NCBI GenBank assembly: GCA_030605835.1
Contig: JAUWHO010000048.1
Span: 107,984 to 171,983 of the forward strand
DNA length: 64,000 bases
Origin: Candidatus Zixiibacteriota bacterium
GTDB lineage: Bacteria; Zixibacteria; MSB-5A5; DG-27
Reading direction: 5' to 3'
The first letter of the stretch is position 1. Each line of letters opens with the position of its first letter. The notes under the pieces are model-generated. The model saw nothing but the letters and a program-made list of their open reading frames with translations, searched no databases and had not been told where the DNA came from. The position numbers and the translations under genes are program-made. Positions 19,368-47,795 of this stretch are shown here, piece after piece.

Positions 19368-21947
19368 TTAGAATCTCCCGGTCATCGAGAATCTCATCTC
19401 GTTACCACGGTTGTTCTCTTTGGAGCTGGGGAGGTAGGAGAAGTCGAAGGCGTAGTTCATGTACTGGAGTCCCACCCCCACGGTGGCGAACTGCAGGGCG
19501 CCGATCTGATCATACAGGTAACCGGCCCTCAAAGCCACGAAGTTGCCATACCAGTACTCCATTCCGCCGTGGACGATGACCTCCTCGATCTCGGTATCGA
19601 AGCGGTCGTTTAAGTCCACCAGGAGTTTGGTGAACTCCGCAATAAAGGTCAGGCGATTGAAGGGGCTGTCCACCAGACGGTAAGCCCCGGAGGCCACGAA
19701 ATTCCGAGGCAGGGGGTCTGACTGGTCGGCGTCAATGTAAGCGACGTTGGGGCCGATGTTGGTCACCACCGCCGCCAGCGCCAAACGTCTGAATGGGTTG
19801 TAGAGCAAACCGCCGTCGATGGCAAAGGAGGTCGCGATCCCCTCGCCTCTTTCCGCTCCCGCTCCGGCCTCGGCGAGATGGCTGTAAATGTACTTGGTGG
19901 TGAGCCCCATGGCGAGGTTCTCGGTTATGCTGGTGCCGTAAGACAGCCCCAGGGCGTATTCGAAGGACTCGAAAGTCCCGAGGTAGTTCCCGACCTCGTC
20001 GGTGCGTTGTTGGCTTCCGTAAGAGACGAAGGTGAGGCTGGCACCCAGGGTGCCGATGTTCTTGAAGTTCTGGACATAGGAGAGATACTCGTAATAGACA
20101 TCGCTTGCCAGCGCCGGAACCAGATTGGTGTGCATCAGGGTGAGCTCCCTTCTGGCGTGTGCCAGAACCACTACCCTCTTTTCGGTGGCAAACCAGATCT
20201 CCCCGTCCTTTTCGATGATCGATCTGGTGGGGGTGCGCTCTAAGTTCTGGTGATAGTAACGTCCCCACCTTTTGCCGTCGTGTTTGATGGTCCCGTACTC
20301 GGTCCCCACCAGAATCTCCCCGCCGACCCTCTCGAGGTCGTAAACTTGAGCTCCGGCGGTATTGGCATAAACGTAGAGCTGCTCTCCAGTCTGGAGAGGG
20401 TTGTCGTCGATTTTGTTATAGGAGGCGATCAGACCTGCCAACCTTAGGGCCCGCTCCGGCTTCTTAGTGCCGACGAATTTTTGGGCCACCTCCAGGAGAC
20501 TTTCTCCTCCCTCGGCGGTGTATAGTCTGTAACCGTGCCGTCTCCAACTGCTCTTGTGGAAACTCCAGACGCCTGAGTCGGTGCCGATCCAGAGATTCTC
20601 CTTCTTGTCCAAAGCCAGGGAGGTCACCTCCCCGGAGAAGGCGATACTGTATGGGATCTTTATCTGCATCCCGGGATAGAGGGAATCTGAATCGGCCAGT
20701 TCGTTATATTCGGAAATTAAGGCCGCAGCTGCCGCTATCTCGGCACCGTGCTTCGAACCCAAGAGACGGGAGGCGATCTTCTCGAAGTCGTCCCCCACCC
20801 GCACCGGATAGTTGAGGTGAGCCTTAATCTCCCTGCCGTCGAAATAGGCAATGCCGGCCTTGGTCCCGATCCACAGAGCCCTTTTCTTATGAAGTCTGAG
20901 CGCGGTGATGTAGTTATCCGGCAGCTCTTCTTCGGTGGTGTAGAAGGTCCACTTGCTTCCGTCAAATCGGGCCAGACCGGAATCGGTCCCCAGCCAGAGC
21001 GACTTTTTCTCCCCGGCGACGATGGCGGTAACATTGTTGGAGGGAAGACTGTCGCTCTCCACCGTAAAGGTCTTCCACCTTCTGCGGTCGTATCTGAAAA
21101 GCCCCTCGGGGGTGCCGAGGTAGAGGTAGTCTTTGAAATCGGAGGCCAGGCAATTGATCCGGGGGGGCAAGACCAGGTTGAAGGGGATTTTTACCTCCTC
21201 CGGCATCTGGGTGGTGACCGGCTTGTCGACTCCGAAGGCCAACTTGTCCAGCTCTAGGCTGCTGAGGGAATCGTCGGCGAGGTAATCCTCCACCGATCTT
21301 TTGAGAAGTTGAAGCTCATCGGCATCCAAGGTCAGCTCTCCCCAGGACCTCTTGAGGCTCTCCAGCCCCATCTTTATCTCTTCTAAATAGTAGTAGTTCT
21401 CCGGCACCTTCTCTAAAATCCTCTGTTCTAGAAGCTCCAGGTCCTCGAAGGGGATGGTGGTGTTCGCCTCCGCGATCTTTTTCGCCATATTCTGACGGGC
21501 CTCGCGGTCGTCGGTGCGGGTGAAGCGCTCGGCGATGTCCTCCAGCGATTCTCCGCTCCTGACCGCGTAGTCCTCCCCGAAAAGCCACCTCTCCCCGTTC
21601 CAGCGAGCCAGGCGCTCTCCGACCAAAGCCCAGATATCATATCTGAGGTAGTTATTCTCGGGGAGATTGTTCTTCAAGATAGCGATCTGGCGGATCTCTC
21701 CTTCAGCTTCCAGCTTGAACTCCAAGAAGGCTGGGGACAAAGGATAGCGGCCCAGACCGGCGGGGTTCCAGTGGGTGGCAGTGGCGTCGTCGGAGATGGC
21801 GGCGAAGCACTCCCCCATGCCTCCAGCCCTGGCCCCGGGAGCGATCATAAGGAAAATCACCCCGGTCTGGCTCACCTGACATAGCCCCCCCGGCGATAAG
21901 CCGACTAAAAAGAGCAGAGCCAACGTCGATATGATTGTTGCTTTCAT
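19368..21947 (-). CDS. PorV-family barrel interrupted by a beta-propeller with three LysM-like domains
   Basis: PorV N-terminus FLMIAPGARAGGMG...HWNPAGL; Reg_prop-type blades (LPSNNVTAI..LWLGT..GLARFDG); LysM-like YAVRSGESL, YPVRVGDDF..LYPGMQIKIP, YTAEGGESL..LQTGEQL; barrel resumes at ELTLMH and ends MRFSMTGRF. Confidence 0.8.
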   Translation of the reverse strand: MKATIISTLALLFLVGLSPGGLCQVSQTGVIFLMIAPGARAGGMGECFAAISDDATATHWNPAGLGRYPLSPAFLEFKLEAEGEIRQIAILKNNLPENNYLRYDIWALVGERLARWNGERWLFGEDYAVRSGESLEDIAERFTRTDDREARQNMAKKIAEANTTIPFEDLELLEQRILEKVPENYYYLEEIKMGLESLKRSWGELTLDADELQLLKRSVEDYLADDSLSSLELDKLAFGVDKPVTTQMPEEVKIPFNLVLPPRINCLASDFKDYLYLGTPEGLFRYDRRRWKTFTVESDSLPSNNVTAIVAGEKKSLWLGTDSGLARFDGSKWTFYTTEEELPDNYITALRLHKKRALWIGTKAGIAYFDGREIKAHLNYPVRVGDDFEKIASRLLGSKHGAEIAAAAALISEYNELADSDSLYPGMQIKIPYSIAFSGEVTSLALDKKENLWIGTDSGVWSFHKSSWRRHGYRLYTAEGGESLLEVAQKFVGTKKPERALRLAGLIASYNKIDDNPLQTGEQLYVYANTAGAQVYDLERVGGEILVGTEYGTIKHDGKRWGRYYHQNLERTPTRSIIEKDGEIWFATEKRVVVLAHARRELTLMHTNLVPALASDVYYEYLSYVQNFKNIGTLGASLTFVSYGSQQRTDEVGNYLGTFESFEYALGLSYGTSITENLAMGLTTKYIYSHLAEAGAGAERGEGIATSFAIDGGLLYNPFRRLALAAVVTNIGPNVAYIDADQSDPLPRNFVASGAYRLVDSPFNRLTFIAEFTKLLVDLNDRFDTEIEEVIVHGGMEYWYGNFVALRAGYLYDQIGALQFATVGVGLQYMNYAFDFSYLPSSKENNRGNEMRFSMTGRF

Positions 21948-22160
21948 CTTAGACCTCCAAATTGGAAAAGAACCTCTTTTACCAAAACCCTGTTTCTCTG
22001 AACTTAAACGCCCTTTTCAGCGAAGGTGGGCTACGTCCCCGACCTTAGCTGTCTTCCAACATCCCGTTCACGCTGTAACTCTTATATTCACCTCTGATCA
22101 AACTGTTTCAAGATCCGTTTTTATCGAAATTATCGGTCAAGTTTCCAGGGATTCAAGAGA

Positions 22161-25100
22161 TCACTTCATCTTGACTGCCTTTTGGAATTGTTCGACAACC
22201 TTCTTTCCGGAACCACCGCCACTCGATTGATTAACCTCGACGGTAATTTTGTATATGTAAACCCCGTTGGCGATTTGGTCTCCCTCCTGATCGCTGCCGT
22301 TCCACTCTCGGAAATTGTAGCCGAAGCTGGTGGGTAGATTCTGAAAACTCTTTATTCTCCGACCCGCGAGGGTGAAGATCTCTAAGCTCACCCGGTCGAC
22401 CTCGTAGCTGTTCAACCGGTACTGAAAGACGGTGGAGGTCTTGAAGGGGTTGGGGTAGTTCATGACCTCCTCCAGACGGAACTCCTCCGCGGAGATGACG
22501 CTCAAAAGGGCAGTTGCGACCGAGGAGTTATTAAAATTGTCCCAGGCTTTGAGGCTGACCTCATACTCTCCCGGAAAAACCTCCGGCAGCTGATATTCCA
22601 CCCTCCCCCTGCGGAAGCTTCCCACCTCGTATTGGAACTGGTCGGTCAAATCCAACTCAAAAGAGACTTCCCCCTCCAGAGTCAAGGCCAGATGGTGTCC
22701 CAGCTGGCCGGTGATATTCACCCCGCTGGTGTCGTAGATCACCGCCTGCAGGGTGAACTGAGGCGGCACCACCTGTCGTCCACCGCTTCCCTCCTCTCCC
22801 TGAAAGTAAAGACTTATCCCCGGCCCGGTGGAATCGACCACCTCAGGGGTGGTGGCTCCCAGGAATAACCCCTCCCGGTAACCGTGACCATCTATGGAGC
22901 CGTCCTCGACATAGGCGATAATCTTGGCGGTGGAGTCCCCGTAGGTTATGTCTTTGGGGACGATGAATTTGGCTACGAACTCACCGCTCATAACCTCCAC
23001 CGGGCCCCGAAAGATGTTGGAGCCGGGGAGGTAGTAATAATAGTTGTTGGCGGCGCCGTAAGCGCGGGGCTTCTTGGCGTCGTAAACCGTTATCCAGGCG
23101 GTGCCGTTGAAGTCTGAGACCAACTGGTCGTCGAGATCGTGGACTTCCCCCTCGACCGAGATTACGCTCAAAGCCTCCAGGGTGTCCGGTGATACCGAGG
23201 TGATATGAACCTTCAAGTGTGGTTGCAACAGCCTCAGGGCGGGGTCACCGAAGAGGACGTATTTGCGGTCGTTGGAGGAGGGGGCCCGCAGCAGTTTGGC
23301 AGTGCAGAGGGCGGCGGTTATCGAGAGGGTGTCGGCGCCGAAGAGTTGGTCGAATACCTCGTAGTTAAGATAGGCGTTGCCCGGAGCCGACACCAGCCGG
23401 GTGGCGGCGATAGTGGCGATGGCGCCGTTTTCTGGCATCCTGACAAAGTCCTCGGCCATCCCCTCTCCCCCGGGCTCATCCCACTTGGCGATGCTGCAGG
23501 AGGCCCCGTAAACCAACGGGAGATGTCCCCGGGTCTCCAGAATCGGGAGATCCTGGGTTCTCCGGAGAACGTGCTCGTGTGCCCAGACCTCCTGGCTGCC
23601 GTGGCCGATGTAGTCGATGAGCAAGGTACCGGAGTTGAAGCTGTTTATGACCGCCTCCCGAGCTTGTGGTTTCTCCCCGCCCTCGCCGAAGGGATATTCC
23701 ATAAGGTAGATCTTGGAGACGTAGAAGCCTTTGGGGGTGTATATTTCTGCCAGGTCCTCGGCCTGGGAGGTGTGAAACCACTCTGAGGAGCTTCTGGCGC
23801 TGTGCTGGTCATCGGCGACAACCGTGATGGTATTGCGCCAGTCCCCCGGAGGGGAGTTGGTCTCGTAATCGATGATCTTGTCGATGACATGCCCCAGCGC
23901 CTGCGAGCTCTGTACCGGAATGCGGGAGATGAACATGTCCACGGTGCCGTTGGAGTCTGCATCCGGCTTACCGTAATCTCCGAAATAGATGTAGTTCTCA
24001 TCGGCGGCGCTGTTGTCGGCTATGAACGGGGGGAGGTAGTTTCTGGCATTTGTCCCCTCGCTGTTCCGATAATCGTAAGTGCCATCCCCCACGAGACAGG
24101 CGTAAGCCGGAGATGGCTTGCTCCAGTTCTGAAAAGTGTATTTCAGGAAGTGACGGATCGCCAGGGGGTCGAAGACTCCCCAGGAGAACTGATTGTACAC
24201 CTCGGAGATCTTGACGAGTCTCACCGCCAAGCTCGAGAACTGCTGCCTGTGATTGGCCAACCTTTGAGCTTCCTGGTAGAAATCGTCGTAAACGATCAAG
24301 AGCATATCGTAACGATTGGTGGTGGCGCGCAGGTTATCCGGGAGGTAGGAGGTGATGGAGATCGGCTTTTTGTGGGCGGCGGCCTCCCCCAGGAAATAGA
24401 GCTTAGGTCTTTCAGAGTCACCCCGGTCTTGAAAGATGAGGCCGGAACCGTCGATCTCCACACCGGAGATGACCGAGCAGTTCAAGGGGTCGGTCACTTC
24501 TAAGAGGACGAAATCACTGCCCGAATATCCTCCGATACGATACTCGAAGTTCTCGGAGCCGATCGGAGCCTGGAAGAGAAACTGGTTCTCGTAAAGCGAG
24601 AGCAGACGGGAGTATTCAACCTCGTAGTAATTTAGATAAACCTCCTTGGAGAATGAAAAATCGAACTGGTTCATTCCCTCCAGGAGGTCGTTGGTCTCCG
24701 CGGTGGTTTTGTTGTAGCTCTGCGAGATGACCGAAGCCCAACTGCCATTCACTCTGATGTCGCAGCTTCCACTTTTGGTCACCACCTTCACCAATCCCGT
24801 TTCGCTGGTGAGAACTCCATTCAAGGTGGAATACTGGCTGAAATCCTCCCCCTTCAACCAATACCAGTTGAAATAATCTCCCCCGCCGCCGAGAGTCTTA
24901 TCGTTCTCAACGTGCAGCCGGGAGATGGTTTTGGTCCTCACCACCGGATTAGGATCTGTGGGTGCCCCCGAGATTGTAGCCATCCTCTTTGGGGGAGAAG
25001 CGAACTGGGTCGTCCCGAAGGTCAACCAGTAAGAGTTGGTGTCGCTGTAATGATGGCGGTAATATGTGAACTCTTGGCCCTGCTGGTCGTATTCCCATCC

Positions 25101-26168
25101 CTCGGTGCCGATCCCATAAAAGAGGAGATAATCGCCGGAGTCGAATGAGCCGTCCTCTTCACCGACAACGTGTATCGGTATCTCCTTGAGTTCGGGAGCC
25201 GCAATTGAATTGTCAGTCGGCAGCTCTCTCCCGCCTGCGGTGAAAACTCTGAAGCTCCTGGGATCAAGGCTGTTAGTGTTAACCCCCGCTTGCGACAGGG
25301 TGAGGTTGTCAATTTTATATGTTGCTTGGTCCTTCAACTTCATCCGATACCACACCCCGGCGGAGTCGAAGGCGCTGCCGAGACTCATTTGAGCTTTCTG
25401 CAGCTCTCCGCCAAGCCTTTTCCAGTTCCTGGCCTCCGGATAGTTTATGATCGTCTGCCTGTAAAGGTGCCGAAATAGATCCCTTTCCGGGGGCAGCGTA
25501 AAACCTCCCTTTGGAGCTTTACCGACGAAGGAGACGAAGACGGTGATTTCTCGATAGAATCTTACCTTCCCGCTGATCGGATTGTACCTCACCGGCGAAA
25601 GCACCAGTTCCAAGACTCTGAAATCGCGGATATGTTCCCTCGGACCCTTGCGAGCGATTCTCTTCGGTAGAAATTCGTCCTTTGAGTATCGGGGCGACAA
25701 CTTCAGAGGTGCCGCAGGCGGTATCTCCTCCACGAACAGTTTTTGCGGGAAGGGAGCAATGTTAAAGGGGCCGTATTCCGAGAAGGTGCCGGTTTTCACT
25801 TCGAATCGGGCCGTCTTTCCCGGAGGGACGGCAATGAAGATGTTTTTTCTGGGCAATCGGGGAGCGCCCAGATCTCTGCCGAGATAGCTGTTCTCTATCC
25901 CCAGAAGGTCGAACTCTAGTCCTCCATCGCTCGTTTTTCGATGCTTGAGCTCTCCCGGTTTGTAGAGGAGGGTGAGGCCCTCTTCGTCGGAGCTGAGTAT
26001 GTGGACATCCCCGTCAAACAGCCGGACGGTGGCGTGAAGGCCGGGGCAGGAGATAACCGCCAGAAAAAGAAACGAGGCTATTGCCGCTCCCGCCGAAGTC
26101 CTGCTGTCCAAAAACAACTGGATTGGCCTTCGGCTGTTGGGGAGATGTCGCAGATTGCTAAAGGGCAT
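22161..26168 (-). CDS. porU: T9SS sortase PorU (gingipain C25 family) with propeptide and FlgD-type CTD
   Basis: YLLFYG, YACLVGDGTYDY, ISRIPV, catalytic DYIGHG and ASCS, YVLFGDPAL, KAWDNFNNS, C-terminal NYPNPF..WNG.DQEG..ANGVYIY; directly upstream of porV. Confidence 0.85.
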   Translation of the reverse strand: MPFSNLRHLPNSRRPIQLFLDSRTSAGAAIASFLFLAVISCPGLHATVRLFDGDVHILSSDEEGLTLLYKPGELKHRKTSDGGLEFDLLGIENSYLGRDLGAPRLPRKNIFIAVPPGKTARFEVKTGTFSEYGPFNIAPFPQKLFVEEIPPAAPLKLSPRYSKDEFLPKRIARKGPREHIRDFRVLELVLSPVRYNPISGKVRFYREITVFVSFVGKAPKGGFTLPPERDLFRHLYRQTIINYPEARNWKRLGGELQKAQMSLGSAFDSAGVWYRMKLKDQATYKIDNLTLSQAGVNTNSLDPRSFRVFTAGGRELPTDNSIAAPELKEIPIHVVGEEDGSFDSGDYLLFYGIGTEGWEYDQQGQEFTYYRHHYSDTNSYWLTFGTTQFASPPKRMATISGAPTDPNPVVRTKTISRLHVENDKTLGGGGDYFNWYWLKGEDFSQYSTLNGVLTSETGLVKVVTKSGSCDIRVNGSWASVISQSYNKTTAETNDLLEGMNQFDFSFSKEVYLNYYEVEYSRLLSLYENQFLFQAPIGSENFEYRIGGYSGSDFVLLEVTDPLNCSVISGVEIDGSGLIFQDRGDSERPKLYFLGEAAAHKKPISITSYLPDNLRATTNRYDMLLIVYDDFYQEAQRLANHRQQFSSLAVRLVKISEVYNQFSWGVFDPLAIRHFLKYTFQNWSKPSPAYACLVGDGTYDYRNSEGTNARNYLPPFIADNSAADENYIYFGDYGKPDADSNGTVDMFISRIPVQSSQALGHVIDKIIDYETNSPPGDWRNTITVVADDQHSARSSSEWFHTSQAEDLAEIYTPKGFYVSKIYLMEYPFGEGGEKPQAREAVINSFNSGTLLIDYIGHGSQEVWAHEHVLRRTQDLPILETRGHLPLVYGASCSIAKWDEPGGEGMAEDFVRMPENGAIATIAATRLVSAPGNAYLNYEVFDQLFGADTLSITAALCTAKLLRAPSSNDRKYVLFGDPALRLLQPHLKVHITSVSPDTLEALSVISVEGEVHDLDDQLVSDFNGTAWITVYDAKKPRAYGAANNYYYYLPGSNIFRGPVEVMSGEFVAKFIVPKDITYGDSTAKIIAYVEDGSIDGHGYREGLFLGATTPEVVDSTGPGISLYFQGEEGSGGRQVVPPQFTLQAVIYDTSGVNITGQLGHHLALTLEGEVSFELDLTDQFQYEVGSFRRGRVEYQLPEVFPGEYEVSLKAWDNFNNSSVATALLSVISAEEFRLEEVMNYPNPFKTSTVFQYRLNSYEVDRVSLEIFTLAGRRIKSFQNLPTSFGYNFREWNGSDQEGDQIANGVYIYKITVEVNQSSGGGSGKKVVEQFQKAVKMK

Positions 26169-26335
26169 CGCCAGAACCAAAACCTACTTTATCGAATCCT
26201 GTTCCCGCCTGATGAGGTCCTCTGACCTCGGCGGCTTCAAAACCCTTTAGCTTTCGGCGATAAGCAACACCTCGAGAAAATTGTCTCCAGGCCTTTCTTC
26301 GTCTACTTTTCAACCCAGAGCAGAATTCAGGGAAC

Positions 26336-26704: not shown

Positions 26705-27559
26705 ATGTTAAAGGTCAAATTCTCGAAGATAGAGTCTGTAGGTAACGATTACCTTTACATCGATGATCTCCGTCAAGACTTAAAGGGGAAAGAGCTGCCG
26801 AGATTGGCGATGGAGATGTGCGACCGCCAGCGGGGCGTCGGCGCCGACGGTCTTATTCTCTTCAAGATTGTGGGCCGGGGCAACTATTCTGTCAGGATTT
26901 TCAACCCCGACGGAAGCGAGACCGGAATGTGCGGGAACGGCATCCGGGGAGCAGTCGCCTTCGCTTACAATGTCGGTTACACCAAAAGGAAATCGGTCCG
27001 GGTGGACACCAAAAACGTTACCACCCTATCCGAGATTCTGGAGGTGGGGGGGGATGGCAAGCCTTACACCATCAGGACTGATTTGGGATCGCCAGACCTT
27101 AAGAAGAAGTCGCTTCCGATGACGGGCGAGGGGGAGACCCACATCGGCAAAGCGGTGACGATTGGTGGGAGAGAAGTGGAGCTCTCGGCCCTCTCCATCG
27201 GTAACCCTCATGCGGTCCTCTTCGTGGATGATTTTGACTTCGACTGGCGGAAGTTAGGGCACGAGATTCAAGATAGTGGCCATTTTCCCGAAGGGGTCAA
27301 CGTCAGTTTCGCTCTGGTCAAAAACAGAGGCCGATTGGCCCTGAAGGTCTTGGAGCGAGGCGCCGGGGCCACCCTGGCCTGCGCCAGCGGGGCGGCGGCG
27401 GCGGTGACCAGTGGGGCGATGCAGGAGAAGACCTCGCGCCGGGTTGTGGTTGAGCTTCCCGGGGGGGAGCTTGCGGTCGACTGGGAGAACTCCGACGGCC
27501 ATATTCAGATAACAGGTCAATCGCGGCCGGTTTGCCGCGGTGAGTTCTTCTCCACCTGA
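26705..27559 (+). CDS. dapF: Diaminopimelate epimerase
   Basis: GNDY, GVGADG, NPDGSE..MCGNG, GNPHAV, GVNV, ERGAGATLACASG with both catalytic Cys. Confidence 0.9.
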   Translation: MLKVKFSKIESVGNDYLYIDDLRQDLKGKELPRLAMEMCDRQRGVGADGLILFKIVGRGNYSVRIFNPDGSETGMCGNGIRGAVAFAYNVGYTKRKSVRVDTKNVTTLSEILEVGGDGKPYTIRTDLGSPDLKKKSLPMTGEGETHIGKAVTIGGREVELSALSIGNPHAVLFVDDFDFDWRKLGHEIQDSGHFPEGVNVSFALVKNRGRLALKVLERGAGATLACASGAAAAVTSGAMQEKTSRRVVVELPGGELAVDWENSDGHIQITGQSRPVCRGEFFST

Positions 27560-27598
27560 GGCAAACAGAACCGTGATCAGTTGTGGATTGAACCGCGG

Positions 27599-30811: not shown

Positions 30812-30838
30812 GAAAATCTCCCCCCCCGACGAGGAGTA

Positions 30839-38923: not shown

Positions 38924-39684
38924 AGGCCGGCTCTCAGCATCTCGGCAACCTTGGGAATATCCTCCGGCAAATTGACCGCCACCGGATGATAGTCGCAGAC
39001 TATCACCCTTATTTTTTCGCCGTTTTCCAGGGCTCGCAGTTGTTCCAAATGCTCCTGATTCTCCAGCGGAGTTTGGGGGAGCTTGGAGAATCTCAGCAGG
39101 AAATCCTTTCGGTAGGCGTAAACGCCGATATGCTTAAGAGGTCGGCAGGAGTTGGTGGAAAAGATCCTGCTCATGTCTCCACTCAGGTTATTGAGGGAAT
39201 AGGGGATAGGAGCCCTGGAGAAATAGAGAGCAAAACCGGAATTGTCGGTCACCACCTTGACGATATTGAGGTCTTTCAGTTCCTCTACGGATTCAATCGA
39301 GCAGGCAGCGGTGGAGATGTTCAATTGCTGATCTGTGGAGAGGGCTCGAACCAGGCTGTCGACCACTCCGGGCTTCAACAGCGGTTCATCGCCCTGGATG
39401 TTGACCACTATCTCGCAATCCAGGTTAGAAGCGACCTCAGCGATACGGTCGGTCCCGGTGGGATGTTCGGAGGAGGTCATGAGGGCGTTCCCCCCGAAGG
39501 AGCGCACGCAGTCGTAGATTCTCTCATCATCGGTGGCAACAACCAGATAATCGAGGGATTTCGCCCCCGACGCTCTCTCGTAGATGTGTTGAATGATCGG
39601 CTTGCCCAGAAGGTTCGCCAGCGCTTTCCCCGGAAACCTCTTGGAGGTATATCTCGCTGGGATTACCCCGATAGCCTTACGCAT
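38920..39684 (-). CDS. kdsB: CMP-KDO synthetase
   Basis: [53 protein letters not shown]. Confidence 0.95.
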
Positions 39685-39689
39685 ATTTT

Positions 39690-39718
39690 ATTTTAAGGAT
39701 CGAGGGAGAGGATGTCAA
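39690..39718 (-). promoter_or_regulatory. Promoter predicting a leaderless kdsB mRNA
   Basis: Minus strand TTGACA, 17 nt, TAAAAT; the -10 ends 5 nt before the ATG and there is no SD. Confidence 0.55.
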
Positions 39719-39846
39719 CCGATTTTTGAAAAAGCTTTGGGAGCGGGTCGACGGCGGACGAATCTCCCCTTTCGCCGTGTTTTTGATGACGGCTTTCTTT
39801 GAATTGGTTTCGGATAGGCGAGATAACTCAATTTGGGAGCGCGGCC

Positions 39847-40419
39847 TTAACGGCCGTAGCGTCCCATCAGCTGGGCCTCTCCGAGGAGGTGTCCCTCCAT
39901 GGCTTTCAAGAGGTCTTTTTTGCTTTTGCCGGGCTCAAGCTCTAGCTCTGAATCGAGGGCATACAGTTTGAAATAATAGCGATGAGCCGGACCCGGTGGA
40001 GGGCAGGGGCCACCGTAACCGACTCTTTTGAAGTCGGTTATTCCCTGTCTGGCACCGCTCTCAAGAGTCTTATCCTTTGCCACCCCCTCTGGCAATTCAG
40101 AAGTCTCCCCAGGGATATTATAAATGACCCAGTGAACCCAGGTTCCCACAGGGGCATCGGGGTCGTCGCAGATGAGGGCGAAGGATCTGGTTCCCTCTGG
40201 AGCTTCGGTCCACTTGAGAGCTGGCGAAATATCCGGTCCGTCGCAGGTGAATTGTGTCGGTATGGTCGCCCCCTCTTGGAAGGCGGAGCTTGTGATTTGA
40301 AATGCCATAATCTTCTCTCCTTCAGGCAACTCCTGTTCTTGCTTCTCCTTTTGACAGCCGCAGGGTGCAGCTATCACGAGGCACAACGTCAATACAACTA
40401 ACCGCAGATACCTTTTCAC
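39847..40419 (-). CDS. YbhB/YbcL (PEBP/RKIP-like) protein with export signal
   Basis: FTCDG..ISP.L.W, DDPDAP..TWVHW, YGGPCPP, HRY.F.LYALD; GTG start at 40419 restores a signal/lipoprotein peptide. Confidence 0.88.
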   Translation of the reverse strand: MKRYLRLVVLTLCLVIAAPCGCQKEKQEQELPEGEKIMAFQITSSAFQEGATIPTQFTCDGPDISPALKWTEAPEGTRSFALICDDPDAPVGTWVHWVIYNIPGETSELPEGVAKDKTLESGARQGITDFKRVGYGGPCPPPGPAHRYYFKLYALDSELELEPGKSKKDLLKAMEGHLLGEAQLMGRYGR

Positions 40420-40466
40420 AACAGCCTCCTTCTGTGAATTCTTTTCAGTGCTCGGGGAGCGGTTAC

Positions 40467-40703
40467 TTACTCTTTGGCCCAGGCGGGCATAGCCTGCATA
40501 TACAATTCCGCCCTTGCCTTGGCCTGGTCCTCGGTGATGGCCGGCTGCCAGGACTGCAGCCACTTGGTAATGCCGCCCAAGATGGCTTCCCGGGGCTGAA
40601 GGTTGCCCTTCTCGTCAGTGCAGTACTTACAATACTGCTCCGATGGGCCTTTGAAATCCGGATTCGCCAAAGGCGCCGCGCAGGATTCACAGAACTTGTC
40701 CAT
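40467..40703 (-). CDS. Small zinc-ribbon protein
   Basis: FCESCAAPL and YCKYC pairs, C-terminal MPAW; RBS GAGAGG. Confidence 0.7.
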   Translation of the reverse strand: MDKFCESCAAPLANPDFKGPSEQYCKYCTDEKGNLQPREAILGGITKWLQSWQPAITEDQAKARAELYMQAMPAWAKE

Positions 40704-40843
40704 GTTTTACCTCCTCTCGTCAGTTGTTGTTCACGAGCAATCAGAACCGCAGTGCTGTGGAGCGCAAAGCCAGCAAAGCTTACTTACTGCGGCCATATCT
40801 TCTTCCAGATTGGCGAAAACAGAGCCGAAGTGGGTGCTCCCTG

Positions 40844-40996
40844 TTATCTAGTGGGGATGTTGTCCTTCTGCCTTCGGAGCTTGCCGTACTTCTCCTTAAG
40901 CTCTCTGAGAAATGCCTCCCGATTGGAAGTATACTTCTTGCTCAAATCTTCACGGACTCTTCTTTGAAAATCAACCGCGTCAAATTTCTTTTTCAT
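40844..40996 (-). CDS. 50-aa basic protein missing from the ORF track; probable partner of the PIN protein
   Basis: Translated by hand: MKKKFDAVDFQRRVREDLSKKYTSNREAFLRELKEKYGKLRRQKDNIPTR; RBS GGAGGT; overlaps the PIN stop. Confidence 0.65.
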   Translation of the reverse strand: MKKKFDAVDFQRRVREDLSKKYTSNREAFLRELKEKYGKLRRQKDNIPTR

Positions 40997-41444
40997 AAAG
41001 AACCTCCCTTGGGCTCCTAATTTCCAAAACGGGGTAGCCCAACTTCAGATTGACAGCGTTGAATCCTCGAATACGATTGAGGTTTACAATCTGCTGGAAG
41101 TTCCAGCTGACTAAAACATCGACACGTTCCACTGAAGCAATGGCGATGTGTTGAGCATCGAGGACATGTTTTGTGGTTACGACTCTATCCTGGATATAGT
41201 TCTGCGCCAGAGCCTCGGCCTCCTCGGTCAGAAAGACATCCTCTAAACTCCCGTGGGGGATTGCCGGCAATACCTCTTTGACTTCCTCCGGGGCGGTTTC
41301 AAGCTCACGTCGAGTGAGATGGGAGATAACAGCAATTCGCAAACCCCGCTGAAATTCATGGAAGAGCTGTTTAGACCACTTGGAGAACTCAGAGTCTTCG
41401 CATCCGCCAATAACTGAGGTATCGATGTAGATTCGCTGTTTCAT
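40980..41444 (-). CDS. PIN domain protein (VapC-like)
   Basis: IYIDTSV, ..RELE.., DAQHIAIA, LVSWNF. Confidence 0.8.
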   Translation of the reverse strand: MKQRIYIDTSVIGGCEDSEFSKWSKQLFHEFQRGLRIAVISHLTRRELETAPEEVKEVLPAIPHGSLEDVFLTEEAEALAQNYIQDRVVTTKHVLDAQHIAIASVERVDVLVSWNFQQIVNLNRIRGFNAVNLKLGYPVLEIRSPREVLYEKEI

Positions 41445-41511
41445 CTTGTCCAAAGCATCTTCTAGGACAAGCCCTTTAGTTCATTATAGCTTGGGGTCAC
41501 ACGGTTGTCAA
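41445..41511 (-). promoter_or_regulatory. Consensus promoter plus inverted repeat upstream of the PIN gene
   Basis: Minus strand TTGACA (41511-41506), 17 nt, TATAAT (41488-41483); inverted repeat CTTGTCC-N13-GGACAAG at 41445-41471. Confidence 0.65.
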
Positions 41512-41534
41512 TTGCAAAAGTGAGGTTGGTGAGG

Positions 41535-41558
41535 TGAAAGGCTGAAGCTTTCCCCTAC
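41535..41558 (-). repeat. Degenerate REP-like hairpin (TTCA-loop family)
   Basis: Minus strand GTAGGGGAAAGC-TTCA-GCCTTTC. Confidence 0.45.
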
Positions 41559-41576
41559 ATCTTTTTCTATTCCGAA

Positions 41577-41939
41577 TCAGCTTGGTGACTTCACTGTTCC
41601 TTTCAATTCATCCCAGGACTGGAGCGCTCTTCTCAGATGTGGTATAGTAATTGAACCGCCGACCACAAGGCCTATGGCGAGTGCCTCCTCAAGTTCCTCG
41701 TCGCTCACATTGTCTTTGTGGCACTGGATGATATGATAGCTAATGCAATCATCGCACCTCAAGACCAGCGAGGCCACCAGACCCAACAGCTCCTTGGTCT
41801 TCGCCGGAAGAGCACCGTCTTGATAGACTTGAGCATCAATGCTGTAGAACCTCTTGATCTCCCGGCCGGCGTATTTCATCACTGTTTCGTTGAGCTTCTC
41901 TCTTTCGGCTCTGAATCTGTCAATGCCGCTTGCAGCCAT
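41577..41939 (-). CDS. Carboxymuconolactone decarboxylase/AhpD-like protein
   Basis: GALPAKTKELLGL, LRCDDCISYH, GGSITIPHLR. Confidence 0.85.
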   Translation of the reverse strand: MAASGIDRFRAEREKLNETVMKYAGREIKRFYSIDAQVYQDGALPAKTKELLGLVASLVLRCDDCISYHIIQCHKDNVSDEELEEALAIGLVVGGSITIPHLRRALQSWDELKGTVKSPS

Positions 41940-41952
41940 ATTTACACCTCAT

Positions 41953-42519
41953 TCAGTATTTATAGCCTTGCACCTCTTCCGGGGTGGCCTCCACTCCCAG
42001 TCCGGTCGCGATTCGGTTAACAAAGTTGAAATAGCTGACTATCAGGTTTATGCTTAATATATCCTCGTCCGAAAGGCCGTGTTCGCGCAGAGTCTCAACG
42101 TCGGCCTGCTCCATTTCACCCGGAGTCAGTGTCAATTTGACCGCATACTCGAGGACTCTCCGGGTTCTATCAGGCAGTTCAACAGACTCGAAGTTTTGTG
42201 CCAGCCTCTGCAGTTTCTCGCGGTCCTTCCAGTAGTAGTTCAAAGCTTCCCCATGATGATTTACACAGTATTCGCAGCGGTTTGCTGCGGAGACAACGAC
42301 AGCTATCAGCTCTCTTTCGGGACGAGTCAAGCCCGATTTCCCGAACATCAGCGAGTAGTAAAGGTCCATGTGTGCCTTCATAGCCCGGGGATTCAAGCTC
42401 TGAACCTTGATGATGTTTGCAACCTTGCCACGTTTCCCCCTTATCTGGTCGTAGACCTCCTTTAACTGCCCGGTAGCTTCGGCATCATCCACGATTCTAA
42501 TCCATGTCATAGGCGACAA
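41953..42519 (-). CDS. Uncharacterised peroxidase-related (AhpD-like) enzyme
   Basis: ERELIAVVVSAANRCEYCVNHH, KLT..P, FNFVNR...GLG. Confidence 0.85.
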   Translation of the reverse strand: MSPMTWIRIVDDAEATGQLKEVYDQIRGKRGKVANIIKVQSLNPRAMKAHMDLYYSLMFGKSGLTRPERELIAVVVSAANRCEYCVNHHGEALNYYWKDREKLQRLAQNFESVELPDRTRRVLEYAVKLTLTPGEMEQADVETLREHGLSDEDILSINLIVSYFNFVNRIATGLGVEATPEEVQGYKY

Positions 42520-42714: not shown

Positions 42715-42806
42715 GCGTAGAAATTGTTTTGACTCTGGAGGTGAGACTATACGATTCGATAGAGATTTTTTGAAACCGTTGACTTTTGGAAGCTGAAGAT
42801 CTCTAT

Positions 42807-44294
42807 ATGAAGAAACGTAGCTCACCACGGGCGTCGCCCTCTTTTACGGTGCCCGCCTTTTTGTTTCTGTCAATCTCGATATTAATCTTTATGCACTGCA
42901 GCAAGTCCACCCAGAATAACGCCCCGGTGATCTCGGAGGTGGTCGTCCCGGATTCGCTGATTGCAGGTTATAGTGGCGGTTTTTTCTCCGTGAAAGTCTC
43001 AGACCCGCAAGGGTCGGGAGACATAGCCTGGGTTTTCCTCGAGATAGGCGCTCCGAACTCCAACTGGAATCCGGGGGTAATCTACCTCCGGGATGATGGC
43101 ACCGGCGGCGATTTCACCGCCAGCGACGGCACATACAGCCTTCTTCTCTCATCACCGCCGGACAGCACCAATCCCGGGGAATATGATTTCGCCTTCAAGG
43201 CTAAAGACAAAGATGGAGCGGAGAGCAACCAGATTGTCGAGAAGGTGAGGATTGCTGGCAACGAGCCTCCGCAACTTTCAAACCTGGTCGCCCCGGATTC
43301 GCTGGAGGCCGGGAAGGACAGCGCCTTCTTCTCGGTTATGGTCACCGACCCCGAAGGCCTGGTCGATATCGCCGCCGTGTATCTGGACATTGAGCATCCC
43401 ACCTCTCCCTGGAATCCCGATACAATGAGCCTCTTCGACGACGGCACTCACGGTGACACTGTCGCTGACGATGGCATATACAGTGTACTCTTGGACCCGC
43501 CGCCGGAATATGCGTTGAACGGTGATTATCAATACATCTTCAGAGCCAAGGATATAAAGGGGAAGACTTCAGAGGCTTTGATCAAAGTGATCAAGGTCAT
43601 CGGCAATCGGGCGCCGATCCTGTCGCATATCGTAGCTCCGGATTCGCTGGTTTCGGGCGGGGACAGCGCCTTTTTCTCGGTGGAGGTTTACGATCCCGAT
43701 GGCGGCACTATTGAGGTGGTCTTCATTGACATAGATAATCCCCTGTCGATCTGGTCGCCGGATTCGGTTCCGCTTTACGATGACGGCACCCACGGTGATG
43801 TCGCCTCTGACGATGGGACCTTCAGCCTGTTGATGTCACCTCCCCCGGATTCGGCTCTTACCGGGTTATACAGTTTCAACTTCAAGGCGGTTGACGATCT
43901 GCAGGCAGTCGGGGAGCTTGCCACCGAGATAGAAATCATCGGCAACTACCCTCCAACCCTTTCAGACCTCTCGGCTCCTGATACTCTTCAGAGGACTAAC
44001 GATACCACCGACACCTGGTTTGCCTCCGTTCTGGTCGAAGATGATCAGGGGCTTTCGGGGATAGACAAGGCGTGGTTCTATGTGATCAAACCGGACGGTT
44101 CTCCGGGGAGCAGTTTTGACCTTTACGATGACGGCACACACGGCGATTCGACAGCAGCAGATGGACGTTACAGTCTGGAGATGCAGAAGCCTAATCTCAG
44201 TAACCAGACCGGTGACTATCGTTTCATCTTCAAAGCCAGAGATATTTATGAGGCAGTTTCTGACAGCCTTTTGTATTATATTCATGTTGAGTAG
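42807..44294 (+). CDS. Lipoprotein with four tandem Ig-like (choice-of-anchor X-type) repeats
   Basis: FMHC lipobox; four units of about 115 aa, each with L(Y/F/R)DDGT(H/G)GD..A.DG.(Y/F)S. Confidence 0.75.
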   Translation: MKKRSSPRASPSFTVPAFLFLSISILIFMHCSKSTQNNAPVISEVVVPDSLIAGYSGGFFSVKVSDPQGSGDIAWVFLEIGAPNSNWNPGVIYLRDDGTGGDFTASDGTYSLLLSSPPDSTNPGEYDFAFKAKDKDGAESNQIVEKVRIAGNEPPQLSNLVAPDSLEAGKDSAFFSVMVTDPEGLVDIAAVYLDIEHPTSPWNPDTMSLFDDGTHGDTVADDGIYSVLLDPPPEYALNGDYQYIFRAKDIKGKTSEALIKVIKVIGNRAPILSHIVAPDSLVSGGDSAFFSVEVYDPDGGTIEVVFIDIDNPLSIWSPDSVPLYDDGTHGDVASDDGTFSLLMSPPPDSALTGLYSFNFKAVDDLQAVGELATEIEIIGNYPPTLSDLSAPDTLQRTNDTTDTWFASVLVEDDQGLSGIDKAWFYVIKPDGSPGSSFDLYDDGTHGDSTAADGRYSLEMQKPNLSNQTGDYRFIFKARDIYEAVSDSLLYYIHVE

Positions 44295-44311
44295 GTTTAC
44301 AGGAGTTGAAG

Positions 44312-45790
44312 GTGAATAGAAAATTCATTTCCATACTGTTGGTTTCGTTTCTCTTTTTGTCAATCTCCCCGGGCTGGGGATACATGAATTACACCTTAGA
44401 AAACGGGGTGCCCCGGATTCCCTCCAACAGCATCATCGAGGTGAAATACGACGGGGAAAACGTCTGGATAGGGACCGGAGAGGGTCTGGCCAAATCGAGC
44501 GACGACGGAGAAACCTGGGTCAAATACGACAGCAGTAATGGCTTAAACGCCACCTCGGTGTCGGCGGCGGTGGCGGCTCCAGGTCTGGTGTGGGTGACAA
44601 CTTCCGGTTACGAGATCGCCGACGGCGATCTCATACCGATCGGGGAGGGACTGAATAAGGGAATCATTTCCCCCGATACCGTCGTCTGGTCGAGCCACAA
44701 TCCGGAGCAGGCCACCTGGTACGGAAAGATCACTTATGATCTGGCTCTTCTGGATACCGTTATCTACGCTGCCTGCTTTTACGGAGGCTTGATCCGCTCC
44801 ACCGACGGTGGTGCCACCTTTGAAAACATCTTCCCGGATTCTGCTGCCGAGTACGACTACGTCAACGATATTTACCAGGATGAAAACAACCGCTTCTTCT
44901 CGGTGATGATCGATACCTTGAGCCCCGATACCGTCATCGTCTATGGTGGCACCGCCGAGGGGATCAATAAGTTCATCTATCACACCTCCATGGCTGAACC
45001 CGATACCGTCTATCACTACTATCGCGGCGACACCCTGACGCAGATAGATGTTCAGTTGCCCGGCAACTTCGTGGTGGCGCTGGGAGTTCAGAATTTCAAG
45101 GGCCAGAAGATCCTCTGGGCCGGCTGCAGGCCCGCGTTGGCAGGTGGAGCGTACGCTATCGCTAAATCTGCCGATGGCGGTGCAAGCTGGATGAACATCT
45201 TTCCCGACCAGGAGTGCTGGAATTTCTCCTTCCAACAAGACAGCATCATCTGGGCCGCCACCGGCGACGGGCTTCACCGTTCGTTCGATTTGGGAGCCAA
45301 CTGGGAAACTTTCACTTATATGCGCGACACCGAGAATCCGAATGTCTTCTTAGAGGGTAACTCCTTCTACTCGGTCGAGGTCGTGGGCGACACCGTCTGG
45401 GCTGGAGGTTCCGACGGTTTGGTCAAGACCACCGACGGCGGCGTTACCTGGAGGGTTTATCGAGCCTATATTCCCATCGGAGACCCCCGGGCTGGCGAGA
45501 GTTACGCCTATCCGGTGCCCTTTTCCACCAAGAGGGGGGACGGGATCGTGAGAGTCCACTATAAGCCGGAATCGAACACTAACGTTACCATCAAGATTTA
45601 CGATTTCGCTTTAGATTTGGTGAAGACGGTTGTTAGCGGCAAACCGGTCTCTGTGGGCGTGGAATACGACGACGATTTCTGGGATGGGAAAAACGGCGAA
45701 GGGGACGTGGTCGCCAACGGTGTCTATTTCTACAATATCGACATGGACGACGGCACCCAGCTCTGGGGAAAGATTGTGCTTCTGAAATAA
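44312..45790 (+). CDS. Secreted BNR/Asp-box beta-propeller with FlgD-type CTD (PorZ-like candidate)
   Basis: S.D.G.(T/S)W repeats; C-terminal AYPVPF..IKIYD..WDGKN.EG..VANGVYFY; GTG start after AGGAG. Confidence 0.7.
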   Translation: MNRKFISILLVSFLFLSISPGWGYMNYTLENGVPRIPSNSIIEVKYDGENVWIGTGEGLAKSSDDGETWVKYDSSNGLNATSVSAAVAAPGLVWVTTSGYEIADGDLIPIGEGLNKGIISPDTVVWSSHNPEQATWYGKITYDLALLDTVIYAACFYGGLIRSTDGGATFENIFPDSAAEYDYVNDIYQDENNRFFSVMIDTLSPDTVIVYGGTAEGINKFIYHTSMAEPDTVYHYYRGDTLTQIDVQLPGNFVVALGVQNFKGQKILWAGCRPALAGGAYAIAKSADGGASWMNIFPDQECWNFSFQQDSIIWAATGDGLHRSFDLGANWETFTYMRDTENPNVFLEGNSFYSVEVVGDTVWAGGSDGLVKTTDGGVTWRVYRAYIPIGDPRAGESYAYPVPFSTKRGDGIVRVHYKPESNTNVTIKIYDFALDLVKTVVSGKPVSVGVEYDDDFWDGKNGEGDVVANGVYFYNIDMDDGTQLWGKIVLLK

Positions 45791-45800
45791 AGGAGAGAAG

Positions 45801-46826
45801 ATGAATAGAGTTTTCATATATCCGCTGCTCATCATCGCCTTCTTCGCAGGTGCGATTTGCTTCGCCGACAGTGAAGATGGCGGATATGCGGGAGTGTTCA
45901 CGACTATGGGGATCGGGGCCCGCCCGATCGGTCTGGGCGGGGCGTTCACCGGGCTGTGCGACGATGTCAACGCCGGTTACTGGAATCCGGCGGGGATTTC
46001 CAGGATAGGAGAGTTCACCATCGGGGGGATGTATCGCCGGCTGGACTTGGACAGAAGGTACAATTTCTTCAACCTGGCAACACCCATCTTGGGCGATGCC
46101 AGTCTGGGGCTGTCGTGGATCAACGCCGGAGTGAGTGACGTCCAGGGGCGAGACTCCGACGGACTCCCGACGGAGGAAATCAAGAACCGCAAAAACACTA
46201 TATTCTTATCTTTTGCTCGCCGCCTCGTTCAAGAGAAGCCAATCGAGATGTTCTCCGTGGGGGTAAACGTCAAATATATCCAGGAGGATCTGGCCAATCT
46301 CAACGCTTACGGGGTGGGCTTCGATCTCGGAGTTTTCTTACAGATTACTGAAGAGTATGCGGTCGGTTTCGCGGTGCAGAACGTCGGCAGTCGCTATAAC
46401 TGGGACAGTGGGAGCTACTACGCACGCTATGGGTCCCAGGGTAGCACCTATAATGAGAGCTTCCCGGTCAACTTCCGTTTCGGGGCCTCCGGCCTGTTTT
46501 TAGATAAACATCTGGTGCTGGCCTCCGATATCGAGAAAAGCAACAAACAGGAAGTTAGAGTCCACTTCGGAGGTGAGTATTGGCTCTTCAAGGAGGTGTT
46601 GAAGGAGGTAGAATCTGAAGAGGGATCGGAGGAAGCCACTGTGAGACTCCTGGTTGAGGACAGGTGGGTCGGCATTCGAGCCGGCTACGATGACGGTCGT
46701 CTCACCTTCGGTGGCTCGTTGTGGCAAGCGGTCAAGTGGTTTGACCTGGGAATCGGGTATGCTTTCGTCACCGCCAAGGTGAACGAGGATCCCGAACATG
46801 TCATATCGATAGAGTTGCAGTTTTAA
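45801..46826 (+). CDS. PorV/PorQ-family outer membrane barrel
   Basis: GIGARPIGLGGAF..DDVNAGYWNPAGI, GFDLG, VQNVG, FPVNFRFG, ends IELQF. Confidence 0.85.
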   Translation: MNRVFIYPLLIIAFFAGAICFADSEDGGYAGVFTTMGIGARPIGLGGAFTGLCDDVNAGYWNPAGISRIGEFTIGGMYRRLDLDRRYNFFNLATPILGDASLGLSWINAGVSDVQGRDSDGLPTEEIKNRKNTIFLSFARRLVQEKPIEMFSVGVNVKYIQEDLANLNAYGVGFDLGVFLQITEEYAVGFAVQNVGSRYNWDSGSYYARYGSQGSTYNESFPVNFRFGASGLFLDKHLVLASDIEKSNKQEVRVHFGGEYWLFKEVLKEVESEEGSEEATVRLLVEDRWVGIRAGYDDGRLTFGGSLWQAVKWFDLGIGYAFVTAKVNEDPEHVISIELQF

Positions 46827-46844
46827 GCGATTGGGACTTGAATT

Positions 46845-47795
46845 GTGAGCATGAAGAATAATCTCAAGCTAGCTTTTATATCTCTTTTTATCTTCGGACT
46901 GGCGACTTCCGCGGTTGCGGATATCCACGACCAGGCCGGCACCTCCGGTCTGCTCTTTCTGAGATATGGAGTGGGAGCAAGGGCTTTGGGAATGGGAGAG
47001 GCCTTCACCGCCGTTGCCGACGATGCCTCCGCGCTTTATTGGAATCCCGCCGGTCTCGGTTTCTCCGATGGTGTCCAGCTTCTTTTGATGCACAACGAAT
47101 TCATACAGGACATCCGCCAGGAATATCTTGGGGGGTCTTTTCCTCTGGGTAGGCAGCGTTTCGGTCTCTCGATTAACATCGCTACGGTGGCAGACATAGA
47201 GCGGCGCGAGACCGCCGGTCCACCGTTGGGGACCTTCGACGCTCATGACTTTGCCATATCTCTGACCTGGGGGATGAGAGCTACCGAGGGCCTCTCGTTT
47301 GGCCTCTCGGGAAAGATCATATACGAGAAGATTGACATCGAAGACTTGACAACCTACGCTGCCGACTTAGGAATCTTATATCATCTGCCAATGGATTTGA
47401 GGGTGGGTGCGGTGGTTCAGAACCTCGGGGGAAAAGCGAAGCTCGTTGCGGAGGAGTTTAATCTCCCCTTGCAGTATAAGCTGGGCTTGGCATACCGCCC
47501 CGAAGAGGAGATTCTATCCGGCAAAGTTATCCTGGCAGTGGATGTGGCCAAACCCAATGATGGGGATTTGAAATTACATACTGGCTTGGAATACGGATAC
47601 GCCGACATGATCTTCCCGCGCCTCGGTTACATGTCAGGTTACAGCGATAAGGATATAACTTTCGGTGTGGGGATGAAGTTCAAGAGGGCGAACTTCCAGC
47701 TCCCCTTTGACTTTTTGAGAATCGATTACGCTTACATTCCCTTCGGCTCCGATCTGGGCACCTCCCACCGTTTCTCATTGTCAATGCACTTCTAA
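46845..47795 (+). CDS. PorV/PorQ-family outer membrane barrel
   Basis: FLRYGVGARALGMGEAF.AVADDASALYWNPAGL, QNLG, LPLQYKLG, DYAY.PFG.LG.SHRFSL..HF. Confidence 0.88.
   Translation: MSMKNNLKLAFISLFIFGLATSAVADIHDQAGTSGLLFLRYGVGARALGMGEAFTAVADDASALYWNPAGLGFSDGVQLLLMHNEFIQDIRQEYLGGSFPLGRQRFGLSINIATVADIERRETAGPPLGTFDAHDFAISLTWGMRATEGLSFGLSGKIIYEKIDIEDLTTYAADLGILYHLPMDLRVGAVVQNLGGKAKLVAEEFNLPLQYKLGLAYRPEEEILSGKVILAVDVAKPNDGDLKLHTGLEYGYADMIFPRLGYMSGYSDKDITFGVGMKFKRANFQLPFDFLRIDYAYIPFGSDLGTSHRFSLSMHF

Follow-up and report, generated by a model that had tools for sequence, protein, structure and literature searches.

The 64,000-nucleotide window of Candidatus Zixiibacteriota bacterium analyzed here (GCA_030605835.1, contig JAUWHO010000048.1, forward-strand positions 107,984-171,983) encodes, directly after porU, an outer-membrane barrel protein PorV of 859 amino acids (aa), in which ~530 residues, modelled as a seven-bladed beta-propeller combined with three LysM-like modules, are inserted directly after the NPA motif of the hatch and before barrel strand 1. 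This extended PorV belongs to a set of type IX secretion system (T9SS) components for which no GldK/L/M/N match above cut-off was obtained in the Zixibacteria genomes surveyed. As it fails the Bacteroidota definition of a T9SS on motor and ring, we describe it as a T9SS-like outer-membrane module, and we consider it very probable that such a module is functional without the canonical motor. A first-pass annotation of the window (the original prediction) had proposed a complete T9SS attachment complex in a genome outside Bacteroidota and had not mentioned the large insertion that brings the first barrel to 859 aa. The proposed placement outside Bacteroidota was borne out as far as protein identity can tell, the extended PorV sharing 97-99% identity with a protein encoded in a Ca. 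Zixiibacteriota genome (L024/L025) and its close homologues with a named organism all coming from Zixibacteria; the assembly (2.68 Mb, 53 contigs, completeness 96.4%, contamination 0.7%) is that of a member of Zixibacteria and not of a typical Bacteroidota member with a canonical T9SS elsewhere.

The gene following porU is a true PorV orthologue, as established by its match to canonical PorV, its phylogenetic position, its fold and its adjacency to porU. It is by far the top match in the genome for one Flavobacteriales and two Ignavibacteria PorV proteins, it falls inside the PorV clade and apart from the paralogues with a support of 0.99 (FastTree, 37 barrels), and it matches the PorV structures 6h3i and 8gl6 in PDB by sequence as well as by fold. 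No other barrel of this genome is a member of the true PorV clade. On NF033710 the protein reaches 173 bits, below the cut-off of 250, because the match is split. Extracellular loop 1, around the CTD-contacting residue Asn87 (CTD, C-terminal domain of secreted cargo), is conserved.

The position of the insertion is supported both by alignment and by a structural model built from 126 sequences (predicted local distance difference test, pLDDT, 90; predicted template modelling score, pTM, 0.87), which superseded a single-sequence fold with a pLDDT of 36 and was read through its secondary structure and fold matches, not through coordinates. According to this model, the LysM-like modules lie between the propeller blades, and module 1 holds a four-helix insert. 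The three modules match one another with HH probabilities of 96.5-98.6%, and module 2 is additionally matched by Pfam LysM PF01476 (E 2e-8), its beta-alpha-alpha-beta fold being seen in the model. Strands 6 and 7 are joined by a short turn that aligns with residues 193-199 of Flavobacterium johnsoniae PorV, a segment described as a periplasmic loop (PMC10994853). Barrel strand 1 therefore starts in the periplasm, and the barrel topology places the insertion preceding it on the periplasmic side.

A long PorV (778-1060 aa) is encoded in 34/34 Zixibacteria loci fetched. Related forms of 690-820 aa were retrieved in a search of 50%-identity representatives, the named carriers being Fibrobacteria, Fibromonadales, Chitinispirillaceae and Fibrobacteraceae, and the insertion of the Fibrobacterota proteins comprises a homologous propeller with one LysM-like module; the notion of an insertion unique to Zixibacteria was dropped because of these related forms in Fibrobacterota and others. 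Plain PorV proteins are found in four Ignavibacteria (385-387 aa), in one Flavobacteriales (403 aa) and in 41/41 KSB1 genomes (frames of 296-429 aa). Three further PorV orthologues (P0248, P0267 and P0243) carry other large inserts at the hatch-to-strand-1 junction; the insert of Edwardsbacteria is helical and unrelated, and that of P0243 consists of acidic repeats. Such differing large inserts mark the junction as an insertion hot spot.

This last observation bears on an explanation in which the insertion is not energy-related but an add-on that anchors the attachment complex or outer membrane in the wall or acts as a sensor of glycan in the periplasm, shuttling being left to the plain PorV paralogues. 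We regard it as rather unlikely. Consistent with an add-on are the acceptance of unrelated inserts at the same site (helical in Edwardsbacteria), the nearest solved relatives of the propeller, which serve hybrid two-component systems as sugar-sensing domains, the six further PorV-family barrels above cut-off in this genome, and the fact that KSB1 and Ignavibacteria manage without the insertion. These points have to be set against the status of the extended protein as the sole representative of the true PorV clade, against the observation that five of the six further barrels adjoin a CTD partner of their own or resemble PorQ, and against the presence of the insertion in all 34 loci and the fact that Fibrobacterota share it.

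The remaining outer-membrane components are present in the genome, mostly away from the window. SprA (1972 aa, contig C46) scores 737 bits on TIGR04189 (cut-off 200), and SprA matches were obtained in 121/121 Zixibacteria genomes, 120 of them above the cut-off (in this and the following phylum counts, related genomes are not independent of one another, and the negatives include several single-contig genomes). PorU aligns with Porphyromonas gingivalis PorU (PDB 6za2, E 9e-61) such that His860 and Cys895 coincide with a pair of residues whose roles in 6za2 we take to be catalytic; the pair is kept in 40/40 homologues, and in a profile search PorU was above cut-off in 69/69 Zixibacteria and in 6/6 Ignavibacteria-class and KSB1 genomes. 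A PorZ-family gene is broken in two by contig ends (C26 and C12), its pieces scoring 64 and 126 bits, below the Bacteroidetes cut-off, and the top PorQ candidate (contig C52) reaches 188 bits vs. a cut-off of 220. The latter gene (C52:35939-36790) has a short insert after the hatch and overlaps the start of a downstream gene for a 283-aa exported protein. Thus, the anticipated PorQ-U-V-Z attachment complex exists as a genome-wide set and is incomplete in the window, where PorU, with its His/Cys pair intact, was recognized correctly (732 bits on NF033707). Likewise, of the proposed divergence or absence of both motor and translocon, the first part holds, GldK/L/M/N being undetectable phylum-wide, and the second does not, the SprA translocon being present.

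A single-copy lipoprotein resembling SprE/PorW was found in 21/22 Zixibacteria at 59-105 bits, below the cut-off of 250. In this genome (contig C7:11360-13543; L180:1861-4041) it has a lipoprotein motif and TPR repeats, and among solved chains, SprE 8gl8 alone aligns with its profile across the long TPR span (E 9e-13); by these sequence matches it is probably a divergent SprE/PorW orthologue. An earlier idea that SprE is absent and its dish replaced by the PorV insertion was dropped, a motif search having missed the gene that the profile search found. The protein ends in a TonB-C domain in 13/13 Zixibacteria (nine above the Pfam cut-off, four at E 6e-4 to 0.03) and in 0/5 other genomes, for which the last 200 residues were scanned. 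Cargo is abundant: among 6541 mechanically called open reading frames (ORFs), a self-built CTD profile identified 135 that end in a CTD (127 of at least 200 aa), which, along with TIGR04183 matches on window proteins, shows that the genome has the type A CTD cargo by which Bacteroidota T9SS are recognized.

The energy chain, on the other hand, was not recovered by profiles that were built on Bacteroidetes, may miss divergent parts and were controlled on five Bacteroidetes genomes. GldM and GldN were found in 0/69 Zixibacteria and in 0/6 Ignavibacteria-class and KSB1 genomes; GldL was above cut-off in 0/38 Zixibacteria (one 24-bit match) and GldK likewise in 0/38 (four FGE-like matches of 82-91 bits vs. 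350), each of the four being found in 5/5 controls. The GldK-like match of this genome was rejected as a 257-aa FGE-family lipoprotein. Plug was found in 0/22 Zixibacteria, and PorE gave no full-length match in 22 Zixibacteria with up to 27 candidates scored per genome (one match covered the OmpA domain only), under a model whose cut-off was reached by no genome, controls included, although all five controls gave long matches. PorP, DUF6089 and DUF4835 were each found in 0/2 genomes; we take the latter two to be PorG and PorD, respectively. The original prediction had likewise found no recognizable porK/L/M/N or sprA in the window, and indeed there were no GldK/L/M/N or SprA family matches among the 49 window proteins scanned against Pfam and NCBIfam. 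Nor did a recurrent motor-like gene appear beside sprA in 20 loci (murB in 20/20, along with other housekeeping genes) or within the porU operon in 34 loci.

One way to account for these negatives is a dedicated motor that has diverged beyond recognition or adopted another fold, with the extended PorV as its contact point. GldL and GldN are short or fast-evolving, the SprE, PorZ and PorQ homologues all fall below the Bacteroidetes cut-offs, which indicates a limited sensitivity, and the operon does include conserved genes of unassigned role (the two DUF5683-like genes described below). Nevertheless, we consider an unrecognized motor improbable: the FGE fold of GldK is easy to find, yet a threshold of E 1e-20 leaves 34/38 genomes without a match, and many have no candidate, including the five single-contig genomes of that set, in which no GldK/FGE-like candidate whatsoever was seen; moreover, all four Gld genes are gone together in Zixibacteria, Ignavibacteria and KSB1, where SprA and PorU remain far above cut-off.

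In current models, the GldLM motor and GldKN ring are essential and supply the energy that ejects PorV-cargo from SprA (PMC10994853, PMC12365241), and a push from PorG, carried on the moving ring, has been proposed to drive PorV out (PMC12635249, PMC12365241); the loading of cargo onto SprA-PorV in F. johnsoniae takes no energy, which is required for release (PMC10994853). The explanation that we favour for Zixibacteria, tentatively and with a likelihood that we place just short of even, is a working type IX export and surface attachment accomplished by outer-membrane parts alone, with a tethered, non-shuttling PorV and a sortase-driven release. The part list would include SprA, the SprE-like lipoprotein, PorV, PorU, PorZ, PorQ and several private PorV-family carriers. 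Cargo would cross the inner membrane via Sec, enter SprA and bind the PorV loops, while the periplasmic propeller-LysM domain would hold PorV in place, attached in a PorE-like manner to peptidoglycan, to the periplasmic face of the translocon or to both, with no ejection by a motor and no shuttling. PorU would act at or next to the pore, in a system that has no Plug, and the ratchet that makes transport one-way would consist in the removal of the CTD and the covalent attachment of cargo to a surface glycolipid. Most likely, although this is a guess, the M6 protease of the operon would clear cut CTDs or stalled cargo. In favour of this explanation are the SprA and PorU counts, the kept His/Cys pair, the 135 CTD-ended ORFs, the negatives for the energy chain, PorE and Plug, the periplasmic side of the insertion, the conserved loop 1 and the energy-free loading of cargo, as well as the homologous insertion in Fibrobacteraceae PorV and the CTD peptides missing from the mature surface proteins of Fibrobacter succinogenes.

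Several observations weigh against this explanation. Only 13/41 alignment rows match Pfam LysM, so that the predicted peptidoglycan binding rests on the modelled fold, and conservation within PorV is 0.40-0.52 for the LysM modules vs. 0.49-0.54 for the blades and 0.69 for the barrel. The PorV of Ignavibacteria (4/4 loci) and KSB1 (41/41) is plain in organisms of which six genomes also lack GldM/N, which argues that the insertion is dispensable for a motorless system. In F. johnsoniae, cargo is trapped in the pore when the motor is missing (PMC10994853), and the proposed ratchet must therefore overcome a tight binding site. The score of the SprE-like gene, far under its cut-off, shows that Bacteroidetes-trained profiles can miss divergent parts. 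Finally, proton-driven pulling is available, since at least one ExbB/TolQ/MotA-family gene is present in 38/38 Zixibacteria.

The last point leads to an alternative in which a Ton or Tol motor powers release, the periplasmic domain of PorV or the TonB-C end of the SprE-like protein being the handle by which ExbBD-TonB or TolQRA pulls PorV-cargo from SprA. It draws on the occurrence of TonB-C at the SprE-like end in Zixibacteria (13/13 vs. 0/5 other genomes), on the ExbB-family genes of 38/38 Zixibacteria, including an exbB-exbD-exbD-tonB operon in this genome, and on a precedent, as TolA pulls on the propeller protein TolB. This operon is the only one of its kind here, with a single ExbB-family gene vs. 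two to five in 37 relatives, and it is already explained by the TonB-dependent receptors. By itself, an outer-membrane lipoprotein with a TonB-C domain is not connected to the inner membrane. The ExbB-like gene located near the second cassette (see below) in relatives was rejected as a T9SS part, as it belongs to a Tol-Pal operon (tolQ-R-A-B-pal-cpoB, beside ligA in seven related Zixibacteria loci) that is not at that site here (contig C51:29242-31825) in spite of the whole T9SS set; TolR, TolA and most Pal proteins of the relatives have no match in this assembly, and Tol-Pal was possibly lost from this genome. Overall, we consider Ton- or Tol-powered release unlikely. A complex prediction for the PorV insertion and the SprE-like TonB-C scored 0.00 and, giving no answer, counts neither for nor against binding.

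The features of the window are collected in Table 1. All genes listed in the original prediction are present; the span 19368-47795 that it treated as one system, however, comprises two separate loci that lie ~16 kb apart, the intervening stretch (26705-42519) being taken up mostly by housekeeping genes. The first locus is a minus-strand operon of five genes, porU-porV-M6 and a DUF5683-like pair (14312-26180, intergenic gaps of 213, 34, 79 and 14 bases), and the second is a four-gene cassette (42786-47795). The six CTD proteins announced were indeed found in the window (starting at 16067, 22161, 31866, 44306, 47955 and 53577), with just three of them inside that span. The KDO (3-deoxy-D-manno-octulosonate) genes kdsA and kdsB are present as well and flank pyrG within the housekeeping run; as ordinary lipopolysaccharide genes, which show lipopolysaccharide synthesis alone, they were rejected as members of the system.

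Table 1. Features of the window (positions within the 64,000-nucleotide stretch) and the matches by which they were assigned.
Feature	Position	Strand	Evidence
Second DUF5683-like gene, paralogue of the preceding operon gene; operon gene 5	14312-15088	-	~25% identity between the two families
DUF5683-like envelope protein; operon gene 4	15103-15987	-	0 Pfam/NCBIfam matches; DUF5683 in 21-25% of members of Atlas neighbours
M6-family metalloprotease with FG-GAP repeats and CTD, HExxH intact	16067-19333	-	NF052323 388 bits (below cut-off 600); TIGR03296 75 bits
PorV orthologue, 859 aa: signal peptide, hatch ~25-66, insertion, 14-strand barrel 601-858	19368-21947	-	NF033709 238 bits
PorV insertion, residues ~67-598: seven-bladed beta-propeller, three LysM-like modules (modelled)	20154-21749	-	Alignment, model, Pfam LysM and Reg_prop
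PorU sortase, 1339 aa: gingipain-type propeptide, C25 domain, CTD; operon gene 1 of 5	22161-26180	-	NF033707 732 bits, cut-off 420
Small CTD-bearing protein, 180 aa, cargo	31866-32408	-	TIGR04183 41 bits
kdsA	36345-37169		Above NCBIfam cut-off
kdsB	38920-39684		Above NCBIfam cut-off
Probable lipoprotein, four choice-of-anchor X repeats; first cassette gene, optional	42786-44294	+	NF041940; 7/20 related loci
Propeller+CTD protein, separate conserved family	44306-45790	+	No NF052228 match
PorV/PorQ-family barrel paralogue 1	45801-46826	+	NF033709 97 bits; outside PorV clade
PorV/PorQ-family barrel paralogue 2	46845-47795	+	NF033709 181 bits
C25-like peptidase with CTD, cargo, outside the originally predicted span	47955-49508	-	Pfam C25, Por_Secre_tail
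Beta-helix protein with CTD, cargo, outside the originally predicted span	53577-55589	+	Pfam Beta_helix, Por_Secre_tail

Within the porU operon, the M6 gene always lies directly 3' of porV, and in 33/33 Zixibacteria loci with data (34 fetched, one cut by a contig end) it is followed by both DUF5683-like genes. The family is labelled as inactivated in NCBIfam; its HExxH zinc motif is intact in the window and in 33/33 Zixibacteria relatives, and in 0/4 Ignavibacteria. The operon of the latter (L122, L123, L125, L127) reads porU, porV, an inactive M6 gene, a gene for a 1030-aa protein with a TolB-like propeller and a DUF5683-like gene. Downstream of the operon on the same strand (9632-14164) are ordinary respiratory genes, which encode a PKD-containing multiheme cytochrome lipoprotein and an HdrD-like iron-sulfur protein. 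The 180-aa CTD protein, made up almost entirely of a signal peptide and a CTD, follows a gene for an 821-aa fibre-like protein (32477-34942, minus strand) that has a weak Bdellovibrio MAT N-terminal match and carries no CTD; the two are possibly a piggy-back export pair.

In the second cassette, the predicted propeller+CTD protein is present, and its candidate identity as PorZ was rejected, as it has no match to the PorZ family NF052228. It represents a family of its own, found in 36/38 Zixibacteria, 6/6 Ignavibacteria-class and KSB1 and 0/2 Bacteroidetes genomes. Its probable role, on the analogy of PorZ-PorQ, is that of a surface-retained component on a carrier of its own, and the adjacent first barrel is the probable dedicated carrier. 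Two barrels follow the propeller gene in 20/20 loci, which were chosen for having that gene (one second barrel is a 184-aa piece). With the extended PorV, these make up the three PorV/PorQ barrels of the original prediction, all of which are confirmed above the NF033709 cut-off of 90 (238, 97 and 181 bits). Further PorV-family barrels occur on contigs C45 (15070-23882) and C51 (118389-127721), in two modules that combine a TonB-dependent receptor, a large partner protein, the barrel and a lipoprotein and that have no SusD-type gene in their ORF lists. By eye, the CTDs compared (window 16067-26180 and 44306-45790, contig C12:3-875) fall into two classes, the carrier-associated ones with ends like G-K-I-A-V-I-R and those of bulk cargo with T-x-x-M-x-L-V-K.

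Compared with the T9SS of P. gingivalis and F. johnsoniae, the Zixibacteria system shares SprA, the PorU catalytic pair, the porU-porV adjacency, the fold and loop 1 of PorV, PorZ-like, PorQ-like and SprE-like genes, and type A CTD cargo. It differs in lacking detectable GldK/L/M/N, PorE, Plug and PorP, in the ~530-aa PorV insertion, periplasmic by barrel topology, and the TonB-C end of the SprE-like protein, in an operon to which two DUF5683-like genes and an M6 protease with an intact zinc motif belong, and in the second cassette with its propeller-CTD gene and two barrels. PorE is a periplasmic lipoprotein that combines TPR repeats, a propeller and an OmpA-type peptidoglycan-binding domain. 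It resembles the extended PorV in joining a periplasmic propeller to a domain of a wall-binding type in a T9SS context, whereas the Zixibacteria module is LysM-like, not OmpA-like, and resides within the PorV barrel protein itself; the likeness is one of architecture.

A closer parallel is the partial T9SS of Ignavibacterium and Melioribacter, in which, according to PMC11705866, the sole T9SS proteins are PorV, SprA and Plug; contrary to that wording, PorU was found in 5/5 Ignavibacteria-class genomes tested. SprA and PorV without a motor, the porU-porV-M6 order and the second cassette are common to both groups. Ignavibacteria differ from Zixibacteria by a plain PorV of 385-387 aa, an M6 protein without HExxH, a SprE-like protein without TonB-C, and matches to Plug and DUF4835. 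McBride and Zhu (2013) and Veith (2013/2017) may also mention sprA or CTD processing outside Bacteroidetes. Motorlessness alone has thus been noted before in passing; to this the present analysis adds counts across the phylum, the fusion of SprE with TonB-C and the extended form of PorV. Literature searches on PorV with LysM or propeller domains and on non-Bacteroidetes T9SS, with subscription papers mostly outside reach and supplements not included, returned no description of an extended PorV, and no title on T9SS in Zixibacteria was found within the same reach. The accessible text of PMC11285876 allows for T9SS in other phyla of the Fibrobacteres-Chlorobi-Bacteroidetes (FCB) group and does not list Zixibacteria there, and in the corresponding portions of PMC11205867, PMC5445135, PMC8542988, PMC5317091 and PMC10515386 nothing on such systems was found.

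A phylum with SprA, PorU, more than 100 cargo genes and no motor chain raises the questions of what drives release and of the order of origin. It is conceivable, if doubtful, that type IX secretion in its ancestral form, common to the whole FCB group, was the motorless SprA-SprE-PorV-PorU-PorZ module, which works without the rotary chain, and that PorV turned into a gate anchored to the wall, with no shuttling, in Zixibacteria and Fibrobacterota. The periplasmic propeller-LysM domain, aided in Zixibacteria by the SprE TonB-C tail, would there take the place of motor-driven ejection. If so, the gliding motor would be a later addition in Bacteroidetes, the reverse of the proposed derivation of the T9SS from the gliding machinery (PMC12635249). 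The T9SS of Fibrobacter succinogenes was proposed on the basis of CTDs, and the mature surface proteins of this species lack the CTD peptides (PMC6851124); PorV, SprA and PorU have no occurrences in the accessible text of that paper. In two Fibrobacteraceae loci porV is, unlike in Zixibacteria, not beside porU. The two groups have in common CTD-tagged surface proteins outside Bacteroidota and a PorV with a homologous propeller, accompanied in Fibrobacteraceae by one LysM-like module. The extended PorV is a concrete, deletable part with relatives in Fibrobacteraceae, a family that includes cultivated cellulose degraders.

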